From: a virus
Lineage: Duplodnaviria; Heunggongvirae; Uroviricota; Caudoviricetes
Length of the DNA: 21,111 bases
Reading direction: 5' to 3' (one strand)
IMG/VR virus record: IMGVR_UViG_3300045988_115574
Location: 1-21,111 of that record
Position numbers and translations under genes: made by a program. The first letter of the stretch is position 1, and the number at the start of each line of letters is the position of its first letter. The notes beneath the pieces were generated by a model that was not told where the DNA came from, ran no database searches, and saw nothing but the letters and a program-made list of their open reading frames with translations. This document shows, in pieces, positions 3,711-18,437 of the stretch.

Positions 3711-5876
3711 ATGGCCGACGAAAACAGACTCAATTCCATTCTGTGTAAGTTTGACGCGGACTGGATGGCGAGCGATGAAGCCAGAACCGAGGCGACAAAT
3801 GACCTGTATTTTAGCCGAGTGTCGCAATGGGATGACTGGCTATCAAACTACACTACCCTGCAATATCGCGGACAATTCGATGTTGTTCGCCCGGTGGTCA
3901 GGAAACTGGTCGCAGAGATGCGCCGGAACCCTATCGACGTTCTCTTCCGACCCAAAGACGGCGCTAATCCTGATGCAGCCGATTTGTTGATGGGGATGTA
4001 TCGTACTGATATGCGCCATAACACGGCAAAGATTGCCGTTAACGTTGGCGTTCGTGAGCAGATAGAGTCCGGCGTTGGTGCATGGCGTCTGGTCACACAG
4101 TACGAAGACAACGACCCAACAAGCAACAATCAGGTAATCAGACGCCTGCCAATCCATGAAGCCTGCTCACACGTCATATGGGACGCCAACAGCAAGCAGA
4201 TGGATAAGAGCGACGCTAAGCACTGCACGGTGATTAACGCTTTGTCACGCAATGGCTGGAAAGAGTTCGCAGAGGATTACGGTATTGATCCTGACACCCT
4301 GCCATCTTTCCAGAATCCGAACGACACATGGCTGTTTCCGTGGGTATCGAATGATGTCGTCTACGTCGCTGAGTATTACGAGGTAGAAGAGAAGAAAGAG
4401 AAAGTCTTCATCTACCGCGACCCGCTGACAGGTGAGCCGGTCAGCTATTACCAGCAGGATATCAAAGACGTCATCGACGATCTGGCTAATCGTGGATTCA
4501 TTAAGGTAGCAGAGCGCAAGGTGAAGCGTCGGCGTGTGTATAAGTCGATCATCACCTGCACGCAGATACTGAAAGACCGCGAGAAGATAGCCGGAGAGCA
4601 TATCCCAATAGTTCCTGTGTACGGCGAATGGTCATTCGCTGGTGACAAGGAGTGCTACGAAGGAGTGGTAAGGCTGACGAAAGACGGTCAGCGCCTTCGT
4701 AACATGATCATGTCGTTCAACGCCGATATTGTTGCTCGTTCACCGAAGAAGAAACCTACCTTCTTCCCTGAGCAAATCGAAGGCTACGAATACATGTACG
4801 GTGGAAATGATGACTATCCGTACTATCTCCAGAACAGGACTGATGAAAACGGTAACGACCTGCCGATTGGTCCAATCTCCTACATGGAAAACCCTGAAGT
4901 GCCGCAAGCCAACGCTTACATGCTTGAGGCTGCCACCAACGCAGTGAAAGAGGTGGCTAGTCTTGGTGTGGATGCGCAGGCAGCAAACTCTCAGGTCGCT
5001 TTCGATACCGTCAATCAACTGAACATGCGGGCAGACCTTGAGACATACGTGTTTCAGGATAACCTGGCTACCGCAATGCGACGTGATGGCGAGATTTATG
5101 CCTCAATGGTCAACGATATTTATGACGTTCCTCGCCATGTAACGCTGACTCTTGAAGACGGAAGCGAGAAAGACGTTCAACTCTATGCGCAAGTTGTCGA
5201 TTACCATTCCGGCAATGTGGTCACACTCAACGACATTCGCGGTCGCTATGAGTGCTATACAGACGTAGGACCATCCTTCCAGAGTATGAAGGAACAGAAC
5301 CGCGCAGAGATTCAGGAGTTGCTCACCAAGGTTCCGCAAGGTACTCCAGAGTTCCAGATGCTGATGCTGCAATACTTCACGCTGCTTGACGGTAAAGGCG
5401 TCGAGATGATGCGAGAGTACGCGAACAAGCAACTGGTGATGATGGGGCTGAAGAAGCCAGAAACACCTGAAGAGATGGAGATGGTACAGCAGGCTCAACA
5501 GCAGCCGCAGCAGCCATCAGCAGAGCAAATTCAGGCGCAGGGTATCCTTCTGCAAGGTCAGGCTGAATTGCTCAAGGCAGAGAACCAACAGGCGCAGATT
5601 CAGGTTGAAGCCGCCAAGGTTGAAGCCCAAAACCAACTCAACGCCGCGAAGATTGCGGAAATCTTCAACAATATGGACCTCGACAAGCAGGCAGAACTGC
5701 GTGAGTACCTCAAGCTAGTAGGTCAATTCCAGCAACAGCGCAGCAAAGATGCTCGTGCTAACGCTGAGCTGCTTCTTAAAGATGCAGACCAGACTCATTC
5801 ACAACGCATGGATTTCGCGAATCTTATGCGTCAAGTTCAAATCCCCTCCGGCGGAGTAGCCGAGACACCTCAATAA
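3711..5876 (+). CDS. 1: portal protein (P22 gp1 homolog)
   Basis: 721-aa ORF starting at the ATG immediately after the gp2 stop, with GGAG 7 nt upstream. Q-rich C-terminal helical region typical of the P22 portal barrel. Confidence 0.93.
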
Positions 5877-12393: not shown

Positions 12394-13809
12394 ATGGCTA
12401 CGTGGCAACAGGGTATTAATTCTGGTGGTTTTCTGGCTGGCATCGGTACGCAAAATGAGAATGCGCCAAAGGCAAGCGACATTAACGCAACGCTTGGTCT
12501 GATCCGCGAAAACAATGAACTGGCTCGCTCAGGTGCAAATAACATTGGTCTGACCGCGTTACGTGGTCTGGCTGGAGTTGCTGATATTTACAATCAGGAA
12601 CAGCAACAGAAAGCTATTAGTGCGTTCAATAAGGTTCACGCTGATGCATGGGCTTCTGGTGATCCATCTGGACTATTTAAGTTTGCCCAGGAAAATCCAG
12701 CGTTTGTTGCACAGGCACAACAGGCGTTTTCCGGTCTTAATGAGCAGCAACGCAACGATATGGGCGATTTAGCCATGAGGGCTAACGTCGCTCTTTCCCA
12801 GGGACCGGAAGCCTACAGTAAATTCATTACTGACAACAAGGACAGGTTAAATCGCGTGGGGGCGAATGCTGACTGGATGATTCAGACAGGTATCCAGAAT
12901 CCAGAGCAGCTATCACACATGCTGACTACTATGTCTCTCGGTGCGCTTGGACCAGAAAAGGCGTTTGCTGTTCAGGACAAGATGGCTGGTCGTGAAATTG
13001 ACCGAGGCAAACTGGCAGAGACAATCCGCAGCAATCAGGCTGGAGAAGCACTTCAGGCGAGAGGGCAAAACCTTTCCTATCAGTCAGCAATGACTGGGCA
13101 CAATATCGCAGCACAACGCTTGGCTCTGGATCAGCAAGAGTTCGGGTTTAAGATGCAGCAAGCACAGGAAAAGGCTCAGCAGTTGATTAGCGAAGCACCT
13201 AAGCTGTCAGTAAACATGGAAAAAGGCATCGAGACGGCTGTAAACAATGCTACAGCATCATCAAACTCAGCCAATTCTATGAGTGCGCTTGCTCAACAGT
13301 TCAGAGCAGAAAAACCAACGACAGGTTTGTTCGGTAACGCACAGAACATGTTCGCAAAACTTACCGGAAGCGATACAACATTGCGTGATTTGCGCATCCG
13401 CCAAAATGCCCTTGTTAACAGTCAGGTTCTTAAATTCCTACCTCCCGGCCCCGCAACGGATAAAGACGTTGAGATCGTTCGACAGGGTGCTCCAACTGAC
13501 ATGGATAACCCTGAGACGGTAGCAAGATGGCTTGATGCAATGGCAAACCTTGAGCGACGAAACGCGCAGTTTAATGAGTTTAAAGCCGAGTGGATGAGCG
13601 CGAATGGCAACCCTGGACAATCGCGTAATGGCGGTCAGATATTGGGGTTGGATGTTAAAAAAGGTGAATCATTGGGGAGTGCCGTTAAGCGGTATATGTC
13701 AATGAATACTGACGCAGCGCCAGCACAAGATTCGACACCTTCAGGAGAACCACGGAATCAGGTTGGATCATATACCTCAAAATCAGGCATTCAATTTACG
13801 GTGGAATGA
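12394..13809 (+). CDS. 20: ejection (E) protein gp20 homolog
   Basis: 471-aa ORF (P22 gp20 is 471 aa), SD aagggg 7 nt upstream. Position between gp7 and gp16. Confidence 0.85.
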
Positions 13810-15647
13810 TGAAAGTAACTGCAAACGGTAAGACATTTACCTTCCCTGATGGTACGAGCACGGAAGATATTGGCACCGCCATTGATGAGTATTTTGCTGG
13901 TCAGGCTGTTCAGCAACAAACAGTTAATCAGGCCAATAATGAACCAGCACGTGAAGAACCATCATTGATGCAACAAGCTGGCGATTGGCTCACAGGTGGT
14001 CAAAGTGCAGGGCAAATTGCAGAGCAGGCTGGTCGTGGTCTGGTAAACATACCATTTGACGTATTGCAGGGCGGCGCAAGTCTGATTAATGCAATCAGTC
14101 AGGGGCTTGGTGGACCCAAGGTTTTGGATGATGTTTATCGTCCAGTAGACAGACCGACAGACCCATACGCACAAGCCGGTGAAACAATTGGTGGGTATTT
14201 AGTTCCAGGAGTTGGAACGGCAGGAAGCATGGCTATTGGATCACTGGCAGAGGCCGCAAATCAGAAAGGCGATTTCGCACAAAATGCAGCTAAAAATGCC
14301 GGAGTTAACCTTGCCGCTCAGGGGGTTCTTTCCGCAGCAGCAAAGGGAATAGGGCGTGGAATAACGGCTATAAAAGGTGATATTGCGCCAGAAGTGGCGA
14401 AGAAAATTGCCACATCAGAATCGATGGGCGTGACACCAATGACATCTGATGTTATCCCGCCGAAAAATGCTTTCACTCGCGGCCTTACTCAGGATGCCGA
14501 GGGGGCTTTGCTCGGGACAGGCTCAAAGCGAGCGGAGCAATATGCAACGCGTAGTAAGTTGGTAAGTAATTATTTTGACCGTTTTGGTGAGTACAACCCG
14601 GATGATGTGGTGAAATCTCTGACCACCACGTTAAGGGGACGGAAGGATGCCGCTGGCGCTGTTATCAATGACGTCACCAATAAAATGGGGGATGCCGCAG
14701 TTGATACCACAAACACTATGAATGCTCTGAATACAGCGATCGCAAGACAGGAACGGCTTGGGACGTCTGCCAATCAAAGCCTGCTTACATCCTTGCGTAA
14801 CCTACGCGAAGAATTAGCAAACCCTGCAACTGATTTGGATGTTACGTTTGATCTCTTGCGTCAGCACAGAACTGCATTTAGATCTAATGTTCAGGGAGAT
14901 GCTATGGTCTTCCCCAACCAGGCAAAAGCAGCTACCAATATGGTAGAGAATGCAATGTCAAAAGACCTTCGTAACGCAGTTGCTAAAAACCTCGGTGCAT
15001 CAGACGCAGCAAAATACCTTAAAGCAAATTCCGATTATGCAAACGTTTATAATAAGGTGCTTAATAAAAACATTGCCAACAAGCTCAACAAGGCAAGCAG
15101 TGAAGCCAGTCCTGAACTTATAAATACCGTTGTATTAAGCAGAAAACCATCTGACGTGAAACGAATCTGGAGCGCATTGGATGATAAAGGGAAAGATGCT
15201 ATGCGTGCAGCTTACGTCAGCAAAATAGCGGAAAAGGCCGGTGACTCTCCAGCCAAGTTCATCACTGAAGTTAATAAGCTTAAATCTCAGTCAGGCGGTG
15301 AAATTTACAACACTATTTTTTCTGGAAAGCACATGAAAGAGCTCGATGCTCTTCATGAAGTTCTACAGCAAACAGCAAGGTCAGACACCGCAAATGTAGT
15401 AACTCAGACGGGACAATCACAAGCCAACAGGATAAGGACGATTGGCGCAACTGCGACTCTTGGAGTATCAATGGGGATTGAGGCTGGTTTTGGTGCAATG
15501 ATGCGTTTGTATGAGTCCAAAGCAGCAAGGAATGCGCTCTTACGTCTGGCAAACACTAAAGCTGGAACGCCAGCTTATGAAAGAGCGCTAAATCAGGCTG
15601 CTACTGCCGTGCGCCCGCTCTTAGCTAACGAAGCGACCCGGCAGTAG
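13806..15647 (+). CDS. 16: ejection (E) protein gp16 homolog
   Basis: 613-aa ORF overlapping the gp20 stop (ATGA). P22 gp16 is about 609 aa. Last gene of the rightward structural block before the immI region. Confidence 0.85.
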
Positions 15648-15669: not shown

Positions 15670-16236
15670 TTATTTTATAGTTTTTATGAATTCTTTATTA
15701 AATCCCTTAGCTTCTCCGGGGTATCTTCCAAAGACAATTTTTATAAAAACAGAAAAAATAAAGATAGCAACGCTTAACAACAGTTGCAGTATCATTGGAA
15801 CCCAAAGAACTACAGGCTCTATATTCATGAAACCAAATATTCTTCCGGCGATCATGGCGAAGTACCACACTGTTATCAGCAAACTTAGTGGCATATGAAT
15901 TACTGATATTACCAATCCAAGAGCATCAGTAATTCTATTTTCAAATTTTTCAGGGGAAAACTTTTCTTTAAGGTAATTCAGTGCGCAGGTCTCATTCTCT
16001 GGATTTTCAGCATTTTTCCCTATAGCAATAGAAATCTCAGATATCCTTGATTCAATTCTTTTGCGTTTAATAAAACTAGAAAAAAAGAACCACGCAATCT
16101 GCAACCCTATCCCCATAAATAGAGTTGCGGCAACTAGCACAGCGTAACTCATAGAATCAGACACACCAACCTCTTTAGTTTTTCTAGTTACTTTGTCACG
16201 ATAGGATATGCGAATTGATAAAACTAAATTGCGCAC
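15670..16236 (-). CDS. AT-rich gene for a 3-TM inner-membrane protein in the position of P22 sieA (superinfection exclusion); start uncertain (GTG 16236, or internal GTG/ATG near 16170-16152)
   Basis: Minus-strand ORF convergent with gp16 (22-nt gap). Three hydrophobic helices ([74 protein letters not shown]) separated by a ~50-aa charged loop. Local GC is far below the structural genes. Confidence 0.6.
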
Positions 16237-16381
16237 ATGATAACTCAGTAATAATTGTTAATGAAAACATGATCACCTATATTGCACAAGGCGAAACAGG
16301 AAGCATAATCTGGTTTCATGAGTGTGATCACGTTTGGGTAAATCAAAGTCAAGAGGAAATACTTGAAATTATCAAAAATAA

Positions 16382-16963
16382 CTATCTAAACGTTGCACAC
16401 GACTCATCTATCCATTTTTCATAAAATTGTATACCGAGATAGGCAAGAACAGATGGATGTATATCAACAAGCTTTTCGCCAAGATGTTCTGTTGGAGGTG
16501 GATAATCTTTGCCTTGGTTTCTTACGGTTATAGGCATAGTTGTTGCTGGATGAAACTCAACTATCATAGGGTCGCCTTCGTATTTTGCTATTTTCCCTGT
16601 TGAATCAATGATTAACTCTTTAATATAATGGCTTCTTGCTCCCGGAAATGCCCCAAGAGTAGTATAAGGAGGTTCAAGTTTTGAGATTTCCATAGTGGAA
16701 TGATGATCAGCATTTCTTGCTTGGTGAAGGTAAGCAAGTGTTTTGTCTGTTTTTCTAAGCATGAACTTTTGGTTGAAGTGGCTGCTAAATTTTCCACTAA
16801 CCGGCTTTGTTGCACAGAGCAACTTACTGAAAGACTTTTCTATATGCCCAAGACATTCTCGCCAGTGCATTTCAAAATCATCATGGTTTGTAGATGATTT
16901 CATCTGCTCTAGGCACTTTTTAGCTGCGATGATTTCTTTTTTTGCTGGGTTGTAATCGATCAT
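16382..16963 (-). CDS. hypothetical 193-aa soluble protein, translationally coupled to mnt (hkcC-like position in P22 immI)
   Basis: ATG at 16963-16961 overlaps the mnt stop (ATGA on the minus strand). SD aagga 9 nt upstream. AT-rich. No motif I can assign. Confidence 0.65.
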   Translation of the reverse strand: MIDYNPAKKEIIAAKKCLEQMKSSTNHDDFEMHWRECLGHIEKSFSKLLCATKPVSGKFSSHFNQKFMLRKTDKTLAYLHQARNADHHSTMEISKLEPPYTTLGAFPGARSHYIKELIIDSTGKIAKYEGDPMIVEFHPATTMPITVRNQGKDYPPPTEHLGEKLVDIHPSVLAYLGIQFYEKWIDESCATFR

Positions 16964-17214
16964 TTTGCATCCTTGCCATACATGTTTTTAAGTGTCTCAA
17001 ATACCACAGACTTGAACTGTTCAGCCTGCATCTCGGCTAATCGTTCAGCTTCATTGCGATAACCTTTTACAGGAGATGGTCTCGATAGAGCATCTTGGAC
17101 GATTTGCAACAATTCTGAGTTCATTGATCTACCATTTGACTCTGCTCTGTATTTTAATTTTTCTCTTACTTCCAAAGGCATGCGGAAGTTAAAGTGCGGA
17201 TCATCTCTAGCCAT
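16960..17214 (-). CDS. mnt: Mnt repressor (ribbon-helix-helix, Arc/MetJ family)
   Basis: Translation MARDDPHFNFRMPLEVREKLKYRAESNGRSMNSELLQIVQDALSRPSPVKGYRNEAERLAEMQ... is near-identical to P22 Mnt as recalled. Confidence 0.95.
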   Translation of the reverse strand: MARDDPHFNFRMPLEVREKLKYRAESNGRSMNSELLQIVQDALSRPSPVKGYRNEAERLAEMQAEQFKSVVFETLKNMYGKDAK

Positions 17215-17236: not shown

Positions 17237-17265
17237 TTGACATGATAGAAGCACTCTACTATATT
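17237..17265 (+). promoter_or_regulatory. Pant promoter (-35 TTGACA 17237-17242, 17-nt spacer, -10 TATATT 17260-17265)
   Basis: Consensus-like sigma70 hexamers read directly, driving arc-ant rightward. The Arc operator sits between the hexamers and the Mnt operator at the start site, as described for P22 immI. Confidence 0.7.
17242..17262. promoter_or_regulatory. Arc operator
   Basis: ATGATAGAAGCACTCTACTAT matches the 21-bp P22 arc operator as recalled; lies between the -35 and -10 of Pant. Confidence 0.75.
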
Positions 17266-17270
17266 CTCAA
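17242..17270 (-). promoter_or_regulatory. Pmnt promoter (leftward; -35 TTGAGA = plus 17265-17270, -10 TATCAT = plus 17242-17247, 17-nt spacer)
   Basis: Hexamers read on the minus strand upstream of mnt; overlaps Pant face to face. Confidence 0.6.
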
Positions 17271-17290
17271 TAGGTCCACCGTGGACCTAT
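17270..17290. promoter_or_regulatory. Mnt operator (perfect 21-bp palindrome, core AGGTCCACCGTGGACCT)
   Basis: ATAGGTCCACCGTGGACCTAT is exactly self-complementary around 17280; its reverse complement reads the known P22 Mnt operator core AGGTCCACGGTGGACCT. Confidence 0.8.
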
Positions 17291-17304
17291 ATTGTGAGGT
17301 GAAC

Positions 17305-17466
17305 ATGAAAGGAATGAGCAAAATGCCGCAGTTCAATTTGCGGTGGCCTAAAGAAGTATTGGATTTGGTACGCAAGGTGGCGGAAGAGAATGGTCGGTCT
17401 GTTAACTCTGAGATTTATCAGAGAGTAATGGACAGCTTTAAGAAGGAAGGGCGTATTGGCGCGTAA
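17305..17466 (+). CDS. arc: Arc repressor
   Basis: [53 protein letters not shown] (53 aa) is near-identical to P22 Arc. ATG at 17305 with SD gaggtg. The longer ORF from 17242 is rejected. Confidence 0.95.
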
Positions 17467-17534
17467 AGTTGAAGCCCCAACTGCGGGAACAGTCAGGGCT
17501 TCTGTTGTCAGTAAATTCGTGGAGAAAAACCAAC
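17467..17534 (-). ncRNA. sar: probable sar antisense RNA, complementary to the arc-ant intercistronic region and ant ribosome-binding site
   Basis: By analogy with P22. Candidate leftward -10 TATACT (plus 17541-17546) just inside ant. Imperfect hairpin gaagccc(17471-17477)/gggcttc(17496-17502) near the arc stop. Ends are approximate. Confidence 0.4.
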
Positions 17535-18437
17535 ATGAATAGTATAGCAATTTTAGAAGCAGTGAACACCTCTTACGTACCTTTCAATGGTCAGCAGATT
17601 ATCACCGCCATGACTGCCGGAGTTGCATATGTTGCGATGAAGCCAATCGTTGAAAACCTTGGAATGAGCTGGTCAACGCAGCAAACAAAACTCATGAAGC
17701 AGATTAGCAAATTCAACTGTGTTCATATGAACATGGTTGCCGCTGATGGTAAGCTTCGTAAGCTACTCTGCCTTCCTTTGAAGAAGTTAAATGGATGGCT
17801 GTTCAGCATCAACCCTGAGAAAGTTCGTGCTGACATCCGCGATAAACTGATTCAGTACCAGGAAGAATGCTTTACTGTGCTGCATGACTACTGGACGAAG
17901 GGAAAGGCAGAAAATGCACGTAAGAAAACATCTGTTGATGACAGGACTCCGCTTCGTGATGCTGTAAATATGCTAGTCAGCAAAAAGCATCTAATGTACC
18001 CAGAAGCTTATGCAATGATTCATCAGCGTTTCAACGTGGAAAGTATTGAAGAGCTTGATTCATCTCAGATACCGCAAGCAGTAGAGTACATCCACAGGGT
18101 AGTGCTTGAAGGCGAGTTCATCGGCAAACAAGAGAAGAAAACCAACGAGCTTTCTGCAAAAGAAGCAAACAGCCTTGTATGGTTATGGGATTATGCCAAC
18201 CGCTCACAGGCATTATTCCGCGAACTGTATCCGGCGCTAAAACAAATTCAATCGAACTATTCCGGCAGATGCTACGACTACGGTCATGAGTTCTCGTATG
18301 TTATCGGAATGGCGAGAGACGTTTTAATAAACCACACACGAGATGTTGATATTAATGAGCCAGACGGACCAACGAATCTTTCCGCATGGATGAGACTTAA
18401 GAATAAAGAATTACCTCCTTCAGTACATAACTACTGA
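17535..18437 (+). CDS. ant: antirepressor Ant (AntA-type N-terminal domain)
   Basis: 300-aa ORF from ATG 17535 with GGAGA 9 nt upstream. N-terminus [44 protein letters not shown]... matches P22 Ant as recalled. The TTG-initiated extension from 17469 is rejected. Confidence 0.9.

Follow-up and report, generated by a model that had tools for sequence, protein, structure and literature searches.

A conserved stop/start overlap may plug exchangeable cargo, probably of a new HEPN-like family, into the lysogenic Pmnt operon of P22-like prophages

In lambda and similar temperate phages, the transcript that the prophage expresses carries the gene for the lysogeny repressor first and then an exclusion or abortive-infection gene, as in the cI-rexA-rexB arrangement. 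For P22, it is established that the repressor Mnt acts at the divergent Pant/Pmnt region. In the P22 record (BK000583), a small gene, orf59a, is found downstream of mnt with the annotated mnt terminator after it, and sieA has an annotated promoter of its own, PsieA; elsewhere, a putative PsieA within 85 bp of sieA has been used (PMC10883804). [quoted passage not shown] A further point of reference is HepS from the Salmonella prophage Gifsy-1, a constitutively expressed, single-protein HEPN abortive-infection system (PMC13043305). Here we analyze an E. coli P22-like prophage in which mnt is joined to orf193, an un-annotated gene of 193 codons.

The whole stretch of DNA that was analyzed (21,111 nt, hereafter the window) holds a complete P22-type immI region. 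Strain YA-1 and two other genomes match it in every base between positions 16200 and 17300 (100% identity), and 21 of the 5,426 complete E. coli genomes carry orf193. Gene 16 (13806-15647, plus strand) is followed by a sieA-like superinfection exclusion gene on the minus strand (15670-16164; phrog_7745, 2.1e-108), with the P22-equivalent GTG start at 16164-16162, and then by a small convergent ORF, orf69 (16215-16424, plus strand; TTG start with AGGA 8 nt upstream). The two genes at issue both lie on the minus strand: mnt (16960-17214), gene 1 of the proposed operon, encodes an 84-aa Mnt repressor (Pfam Arc, 2.8e-27; Repressor_Mnt, 3.4e-11) that aligns with P22 Mnt over its full length except for the last few residues, and orf193 (16382-16963), gene 2, encodes a predicted HEPN-like protein of 193 residues. 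Upstream of mnt, the Pmnt promoter (17242-17270, minus strand) and the divergent Pant promoter that overlaps it (17237-17265, plus strand) each match the P22 record in 29 of 29 bases and were also recovered by a consensus scan. The Arc operator, which Pmnt overlaps (17242-17262), and the Mnt operator (17266-17288) match the corresponding BK000583 features in 21/21 and 22/23 bases, respectively. Beyond these lie arc (17305-17466, from the RefSeq annotation of YA-1 and an Arc match in Pfam) and the sar RNA (17467-17534; Rfam sar, 91 bits), the latter being the one RNA family found by the Rfam scan. The immI region also contains ant (Pfam P22_AR_N/C) and the tailspike gene.

On the minus strand, mnt ends with ...GGC AAG GAT GCA AAA TGA and orf193 begins with ATG ATC GAT TAC. 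The mnt stop TGA and the orf193 start ATG overlap as ATGA at 16960-16963, exactly as an earlier note on this DNA had described. That note had also placed a Shine-Dalgarno (SD) sequence inside the end of mnt, and an SD-like AAGGA is indeed present within the last mnt codons (Lys-Asp) at 16970-16974 on the minus strand, 6 nt before the orf193 ATG. From the base composition of the window, about 0.02 SD-type 5-mers would be expected in a stretch of six positions. The ATGA itself is partly built in, in that the N-terminus of the family is Met-Ile (ATG-AT.), solitary homologues included. Because this family start already contains a TGA, a single ATGA is weak evidence when taken alone; any upstream gene in the right frame ends there, and the first fusion of mnt to orf193 would have needed merely the correct mnt reading frame. 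In support of the orf193 start codon, residues 1-20 are conserved in homologues without a gene upstream.

The RNA of the junction does not appear to hide this start. The minimum free energy of the 111-nt junction RNA is no better than that of shuffles (z = +0.92), no masking of the orf193 start by RNA structure is predicted, and both the SD and the ATG are unpaired in the centroid structure. Since the start site is predicted to be open, coupling need not be obligatory, and coupling through unmasking of the orf193 start is not supported by the folding model. Termination-reinitiation or simple co-translation at the mnt/orf193 junction is possible.

Comparison with relatives gives the overlap its weight. 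Each mnt-linked relative that we examined preserves the stop/start overlap. Together, these relatives represent about nine Mnt alleles, four sub-clades of orf193 (47-100% identity) and three prophage types, and they come from E. coli, from Citrobacter koseri and from a prophage group of the siphovirus type. In E. coli, one and the same orf193 is found behind the genes for three different Mnt proteins, of 84, 78 and 83 aa, each time with a 4-nt overlap, and 14 IMG/VR prophages have the same mnt-orf193 arrangement. In a lambdoid prophage of Citrobacter koseri and in contig L016 (60-62% protein identity), the Mnt-type genes end ...AAAATGAT, and the siphovirus-type prophage group (47% identity) reads AAGGATAACAAATGA, i.e., AAGGA-N6-ATGA as in the window. 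Two members of the latter group, L061 and L062, have lost the original ATG and read AAGTGATGATA, which restores a TGATG overlap one codon downstream. The overlap is therefore above chance, being kept in all mnt-linked relatives examined, the re-created TGATG variant included. The SD varies more than the overlap does: L003 and L025 have AAGAA, Citrobacter and L016 have AGAAAG, and it is weakened in L007 too. Away from mnt, all 26 of 26 IMG/VR relatives at ≤48% identity are solitary, with their own ribosome-binding site and no upstream ribbon-helix-helix (RHH) gene, and the same is true of the metagenomic loci L004-6, L009-15 and L017-18.

On the strength of these sequence comparisons, we consider it quite probable that a stop/start coupling of mnt and orf193 has been selected. 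The proposal in the earlier note that the dose of orf193 is tied to Mnt agrees with the conserved overlap; a strict dependence of orf193 translation on that of mnt is less certain, given the open start site and the weak or altered SD in some relatives.

The unit that is exchanged in E. coli is larger than the gene. It consists of the last 13-22 mnt codons, orf193 and orf69, and ends at the sieA start codon (16161-17027). This module (16161 to 17000 or 17027) is 98-99% identical among prophages that differ in the 5' part of mnt and in the downstream genes. Relative to P22, the window carries a substitution from 16183 to 17032, by which PsieA, the mnt terminator, orf59a and the last mnt codons are gone and orf193 is in. 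Other E. coli P22-like prophages have a ClpP-like gene after mnt, with a 1-nt overlap, or a Rap1a/Tai-like gene, with a 4-nt overlap; another has a 239-aa protein and a PIN-domain protein after a gap of 49 nt from mnt, and some have no same-strand gene at this place. We found no description of this recurrent stop/start joining of cargo to mnt in the literature examined. The best explanation of these comparisons is that orf193 is exchangeable cargo, lying outside the immunity circuit.

Several observations bear on how this cargo would be expressed. There is zero intergenic space between mnt and orf193, and in the consensus scan of the minus strand we find no promoter-like site inside mnt at the scan threshold and no terminator-like site from Pmnt to sieA. 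Because the P22 terminator follows the downstream gene and no internal promoter-like or terminator-like site was seen, co-transcription of orf193 with mnt is strongly suggested, and we regard it as very probable from the sequence. The earlier note had claimed that orf193 is made from the Pmnt transcript and under Arc/Mnt control. The first claim agrees with the zero gap, the scans and the position of the P22 terminator. The second is consistent with the identity of Pmnt, Pant and the Arc operator to those of P22, the near-identity of the Mnt operator and the presence of arc, sar and ant.

Downstream of orf193, the stretch between 16382 and 16164 folds no better than shuffles and a terminator after orf193 was not found; the minus strand from orf193 to sieA likewise has no promoter-like or terminator-like site. 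The homology of sieA to P22 stops 18 nt upstream of its start, and the annotated P22 PsieA is absent from the window. Judging from this sequence, the Pmnt transcript may reach sieA by read-through. Published RNA-seq covers the mnt region of prophage Gally in E. coli LF82 (PMC9928086); LF82 is not among the 21 orf193-carrying E. coli genomes, and these data have no direct bearing on orf193.

We propose that mnt and orf193 would constitute a two-gene operon, possibly a three-gene operon with sieA, read leftward from the P22-type Pmnt. In such an operon, orf193 would be made in the lysogen and would be turned off once Arc represses Pmnt. Ribosomes would finish mnt at the TGA and restart at the overlapping ATG, or they would load at the AAGGA inside mnt; by either route, the output of orf193 would track that of Mnt.

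Sequence searches say little about the orf193 protein. Its sole family match is phrog_23516 (unknown function), and Pfam, NCBIfam and PADLOC gave no match. A Pfam scan of 93 orf193 homologues yielded only scattered weak matches to unrelated families, a PDB sequence-profile search with orf193 gave five weak matches to proteins of other kinds, and tblastn against 50,697 phage records gave none; orf193 has so far turned up only in prophages and metagenomes. Profile searches delineate a family whose members have about 195 residues and which comprises 1,772 clusters (E≤1e-3); its longer members, scanned for domain fusions, show just a weak DUF6941 match. A precomputed PF26900 tag on one homologue was not reproduced. 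AbiV, an HEPN protein of similar size, was rejected as the identity of orf193 for want of a PADLOC match. Literature on the protein accession of orf193 and on orf59a was searched, and nothing relevant was found.

The predicted structure is more informative. The AlphaFold2 model of orf193, obtained with the 93 homologues, has a pLDDT of 94.8 and contains helices 5-23, 27-58, 61-72, 74-88 and 170-191 together with a beta-rich segment at 94-154. Four of these helices (5-23, 27-58, 74-88 and 170-191) form the modeled core, with 61-72 as an extra helix, and the core is predicted to be a four-helix up-down bundle, as in the HEPN superfamily. At the C-terminal end of helix 74-88, closing the third core helix, lies R83-N-A-D-H-H88 (16700-16717, minus strand), a candidate Rx4H catalytic motif in which Asn follows Arg. 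H88 is invariant across the 93 diverse homologues, at least 90% of which retain A82, R83, A85 and D86. In the model, a beta-rich insert of about 80 residues separates this motif from the last helix, just before which is found a second conserved motif, P156-P-T-E-H-L-G162 (16478-16498, minus strand), with P157 invariant and H160 and G162 conserved in at least 90% of the 93 homologues. We note that D86 and H160, conserved in the orf193 family, are not classic HEPN features.

A survey of HEPN proteins located their Rx4-6H motif at the end of helix-3, running into the connection between helix-3 and helix-4, and described inserts between helices 2 and 3 as well as a beta-hairpin after the motif in Csx1 (PMC3710099). 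The position of the Rx4H motif in orf193 is the one described in that survey. Since both the predicted fold and the position of the motif agree with it, membership of orf193 in the HEPN superfamily is probable on the basis of the model. A Foldseek search of orf193 against PDB and BFVD gave nothing significant, the best HEPN match being 8xeh with E = 1.9.

Genomic context suggests what such a protein may do. Homologues of orf193 occupy prophage accessory positions by spanin, endolysin or tail genes, others adjoin transposases, a PIN/Phd toxin pair or a helicase, and for most of them a conserved partner is absent. In our proposal, orf193 would act as a 'solo' HEPN RNase, expressed by the prophage so as to abort or exclude infection by other phages; its dose would be low, tied to Mnt and shut off by Arc, and its beta insert would be a candidate sensor. 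An anti-phage or exclusion function, for which HepS of Gifsy-1 is a recent precedent, is plausible but tentative. Since only a minority of the homologues reside in an immI region, exclusion or defence is favored over a role in lysogen maintenance. The earlier note had seen in the overlap a hint of a lysogen-maintenance or exclusion role rather than a late structural one. The HEPN-like bundle and the solitary, accessory nature of the family agree with exclusion or defence, not with a structural role, whereas the lysogen-maintenance part of that suggestion is now the less favored one. We lean modestly towards a picture that combines these elements, with orf193 as a HEPN-like accessory gene that is driven by Pmnt and coupled to mnt.

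The convergent neighbor orf69 may belong to the same story. This ORF of 69 codons, un-annotated in RefSeq strain YA-1, lies on the strand of the late operon and shares 43 nt with orf193 where the 3' ends of the two overlap. The orf69 family that we found comprises eight clusters. Homologues of 61-65 aa are in the same convergent, overlapping place beside orf193 homologues in L014/15, L019 and L061-65, spanning three sub-clades, with or without mnt; at every orf69 locus examined (those just named and the E. coli module), an orf193 homologue is adjacent. They are always on the late/tail-gene strand, directly after tail genes in L019 and L061-65 and, in L014/15, after an 88-aa gene that lies beyond a 778-aa protein. 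AlphaFold2 predicts five strands and a helix for orf69 (pLDDT 81.7), and one family member has a weak Pfam match to FlbD (E = 0.018). In P22-like phages, late transcripts that reach the tailspike gene by read-through would pass over orf69.

We consider it possible that orf69 is a partner gene of orf193. A more elaborate version, which strikes us as rather improbable, is that the two would form a timed self-immunity pair. The effector made from Pmnt would abort foreign phages, and orf69, made only during the phage's own lytic growth, would neutralize the effector or silence it by convergent, 3'-overlapping transcription, which would spare the prophage its own defence. More broadly, the slot behind mnt would serve as a dedicated docking site that plugs defence cargo into the reading frame of the repressor.

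The link between mnt and orf193 can also be read as that of a type II toxin-antitoxin-like pair, in which Mnt, an RHH protein, would autoregulate and neutralize an HEPN-like toxin, with the overlap fixing their ratio. The layout would suit such a pair (the promoter is regulated, the first gene is small and encodes an RHH protein, and the overlap measures 4 nt or 1 nt), as would the linkage of the two genes in four sub-clades down to 47% identity, the constant co-inheritance of at least the last 13 mnt codons with orf193 in E. coli, and the fact that HEPN toxins are well known (hits 7ae2 and 5yep). However, nearly identical orf193 proteins (the module shows 98-100% nucleotide identity) occur with three Mnt proteins that diverge over the greater part of their sequence, which gives little sign of a co-evolving Mnt-orf193 interface. 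The C-terminal region of Mnt, moreover, is homologous to that of P22 Mnt, which is functional without orf193. Because most of the orf193 family is solitary, with no upstream RHH gene, because Mnt alleles are freely exchanged, and because unrelated cargo (ClpP-like, Rap1a/Tai-like) overlaps mnt likewise, a true toxin-antitoxin link with Mnt is less likely, and we judge it quite improbable. The overlap could also have arisen as an accident of insertion. In this case orf193 would be an independent moron that has a ribosome-binding site and, within the last part of mnt, a promoter of its own, and its level would be unlinked to Mnt. ATGAT is also how solitary homologues begin, with an SD and an upstream region of their own, the SD and ATG of orf193 are predicted to be accessible, and morons are by definition usually expressed independently (PMC2629481). 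Yet no promoter-like site was found on the minus strand within mnt at the scan threshold, and the P22 mnt transcript is annotated through the downstream gene. An accident also fits poorly with an overlap that persists with about nine Mnt alleles, that has formed anew in the L061/62 variant and that is paralleled by two other cargo genes overlapping mnt in the same way; we regard it as unlikely.

These arguments concern the junction. For the protein, it could be that orf193 is neither a nuclease nor a defence gene and instead belongs to the immI circuit or to lysogeny control, where it might, e.g., modulate Ant, Arc, Mnt or the host; the Rx4H motif would in that case be fortuitous within a generic helical bundle. 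In the four mnt-linked sub-clades the gene is always within an immI-type region, no HEPN sequence model matches it, the Foldseek result is non-significant, and the PPxxHLG motif together with D86 might form a different site, e.g., a metal-binding one. We retain this as a minor but real possibility. The reading that we prefer remains that of exchangeable, HEPN-like cargo transcribed from Pmnt and coupled to mnt.

In sum, the overlap between mnt and orf193 is itself of an ordinary kind; on comparative grounds, it appears to mark a conserved means by which the lysogenic Pmnt operon takes in exchangeable cargo, in this instance from a probable new HEPN-like family. For an un-annotated gene, this supplies a putative expression logic that is lysogen-specific, Arc-repressible and tied to Mnt in dose. 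The gene is a member of an un-annotated family of about 1,770 clusters with a predicted HEPN-like fold and motif, a candidate new single-gene anti-phage system missed by current defence-finder libraries. The slot downstream of mnt in P22-like prophages emerges as a cargo site at which unrelated genes have repeatedly been joined to the repressor gene by stop/start overlap, and it could guide the discovery of further accessory functions expressed by prophages.

Compared with described HEPN systems, orf193 differs in several ways. A sequence relationship to HepS of Gifsy-1 did not emerge from the PDB profile search, which returned only its five weak matches to other kinds of protein, and orf193, unlike HepS, has the 80-residue beta insert between motif and last helix, is tied to a repressor gene and is known from sequence alone. 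In the HEPN/MNT pairs (HepT/MntA), 'MNT' stands for a nucleotidyltransferase antitoxin that is unrelated to phage Mnt. HepT/DUF86 sequence models do not match orf193, the Foldseek match to 8xeh is that at E = 1.9, and gene order and type of partner differ; the HEPN domain protein 4nqf was grouped with the HepT toxins in this comparison.

In its genetic arrangement, the locus resembles the leftward operon of P22 immI (Pmnt - mnt - orf59a - terminator). The bases of the promoter and Arc operator are identical and those of the Mnt operator agree at 22 of 23 positions, Mnt, arc, sar, ant and the tailspike gene are shared neighbors, and P22, too, has a second gene of unknown function behind mnt, which its annotation assigns to the same transcript. 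The cargo, in contrast, is unrelated (193 aa here, 59 aa for orf59a) and overlaps mnt, whereas orf59a is 99 nt downstream of mnt; the window is also without the P22 mnt terminator and PsieA and has the convergent small ORF. Similarly to lambda cI-rexA-rexB, a repressor gene is here followed by a putative exclusion gene on what would be a prophage-expressed transcript. In contrast to lambda, the repressor is the secondary (immI) repressor Mnt, the start of the cargo gene overlaps the stop of the repressor gene, and prophages exchange the cargo as a cassette into which the final codons of the repressor gene are incorporated.

In the siphovirus-type prophages that carry relatives of orf193, the 193-aa gene downstream of the repressor gene mnt, the mnt–orf193 unit is joined to differing regulatory neighbours. 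Arc–ant is not always the divergent partner of the pair: in L063 and L064, the opposite flank of the Mnt-type gene holds a Peptidase_S24 (LexA/CI-like) gene at one locus and a gene for a TPR protein at the other, and the unit therefore has varied regulatory neighbours. The junction itself varies in two relatives, L061 and L062 (around 3757-3761 in those records), in which GTGATG stands where the ancestral junction had ATGA; the start of the orf193 homologue has shifted by one codon in the 3' direction and still overlaps the Mnt stop, now as TGATG.

In E. coli P22-like prophages L066, L071, L067 and L072, the slot 3' of mnt is occupied by other cargo: a 178-aa ClpP-like protein (1-nt overlap with mnt), a Rap1a/Tai immunity-like protein (4-nt overlap) or a 239-aa protein together with a PIN-domain protein. 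The slot has the look of a hotspot for accessory or defence genes. A Panacea-domain gene lies close by in L066.

Convergent with orf193, and overlapping its 3' end by 43 nt, is a 69-codon ORF with a TTG start (16215-16424, plus strand). Homologues occupy the same placement beside the orf193 relatives in L014/15, L019 and L061-65, and in every case the late-operon strand carries the ORF. Its product is predicted to fold (pLDDT 81.7). The ORF is unannotated in RefSeq strain YA-1, and one homologue cluster corresponds to an NCBI "hypothetical protein" entry.

On the other side of mnt, the mechanical ORF list makes both arc (17242-17466, plus strand; 74 aa from ATG 17242) and ant (17469-18437, plus strand; 322 aa from TTG 17469) too long. 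RefSeq annotation of the identical prophage gives coordinates of 17305-17466 for arc and 17535-18437 for ant, both on the plus strand, and between them Rfam identifies the sar RNA (17467-17534, minus strand; 91 bits).

The segment replaced relative to P22 takes in the annotated P22 sieA promoter and mnt terminator. Since the minus strand of the orf193–sieA interval (16164-16381) yielded neither promoter-like nor terminator-like sites, sieA (15670-16164, minus strand) may depend on read-through from Pmnt, the mnt promoter. The start equivalent to that of P22 is GTG 16164-16162, giving 164 aa; PGAP calls a longer SieA of 188 aa from GTG 16236. Pmnt, the divergent ant promoter Pant and the Arc operator show no difference from P22, and the Mnt operator (17266-17288) is one base off, near the centre of the annotated site, where the window has CACCGTG and P22 has CACGGTG.
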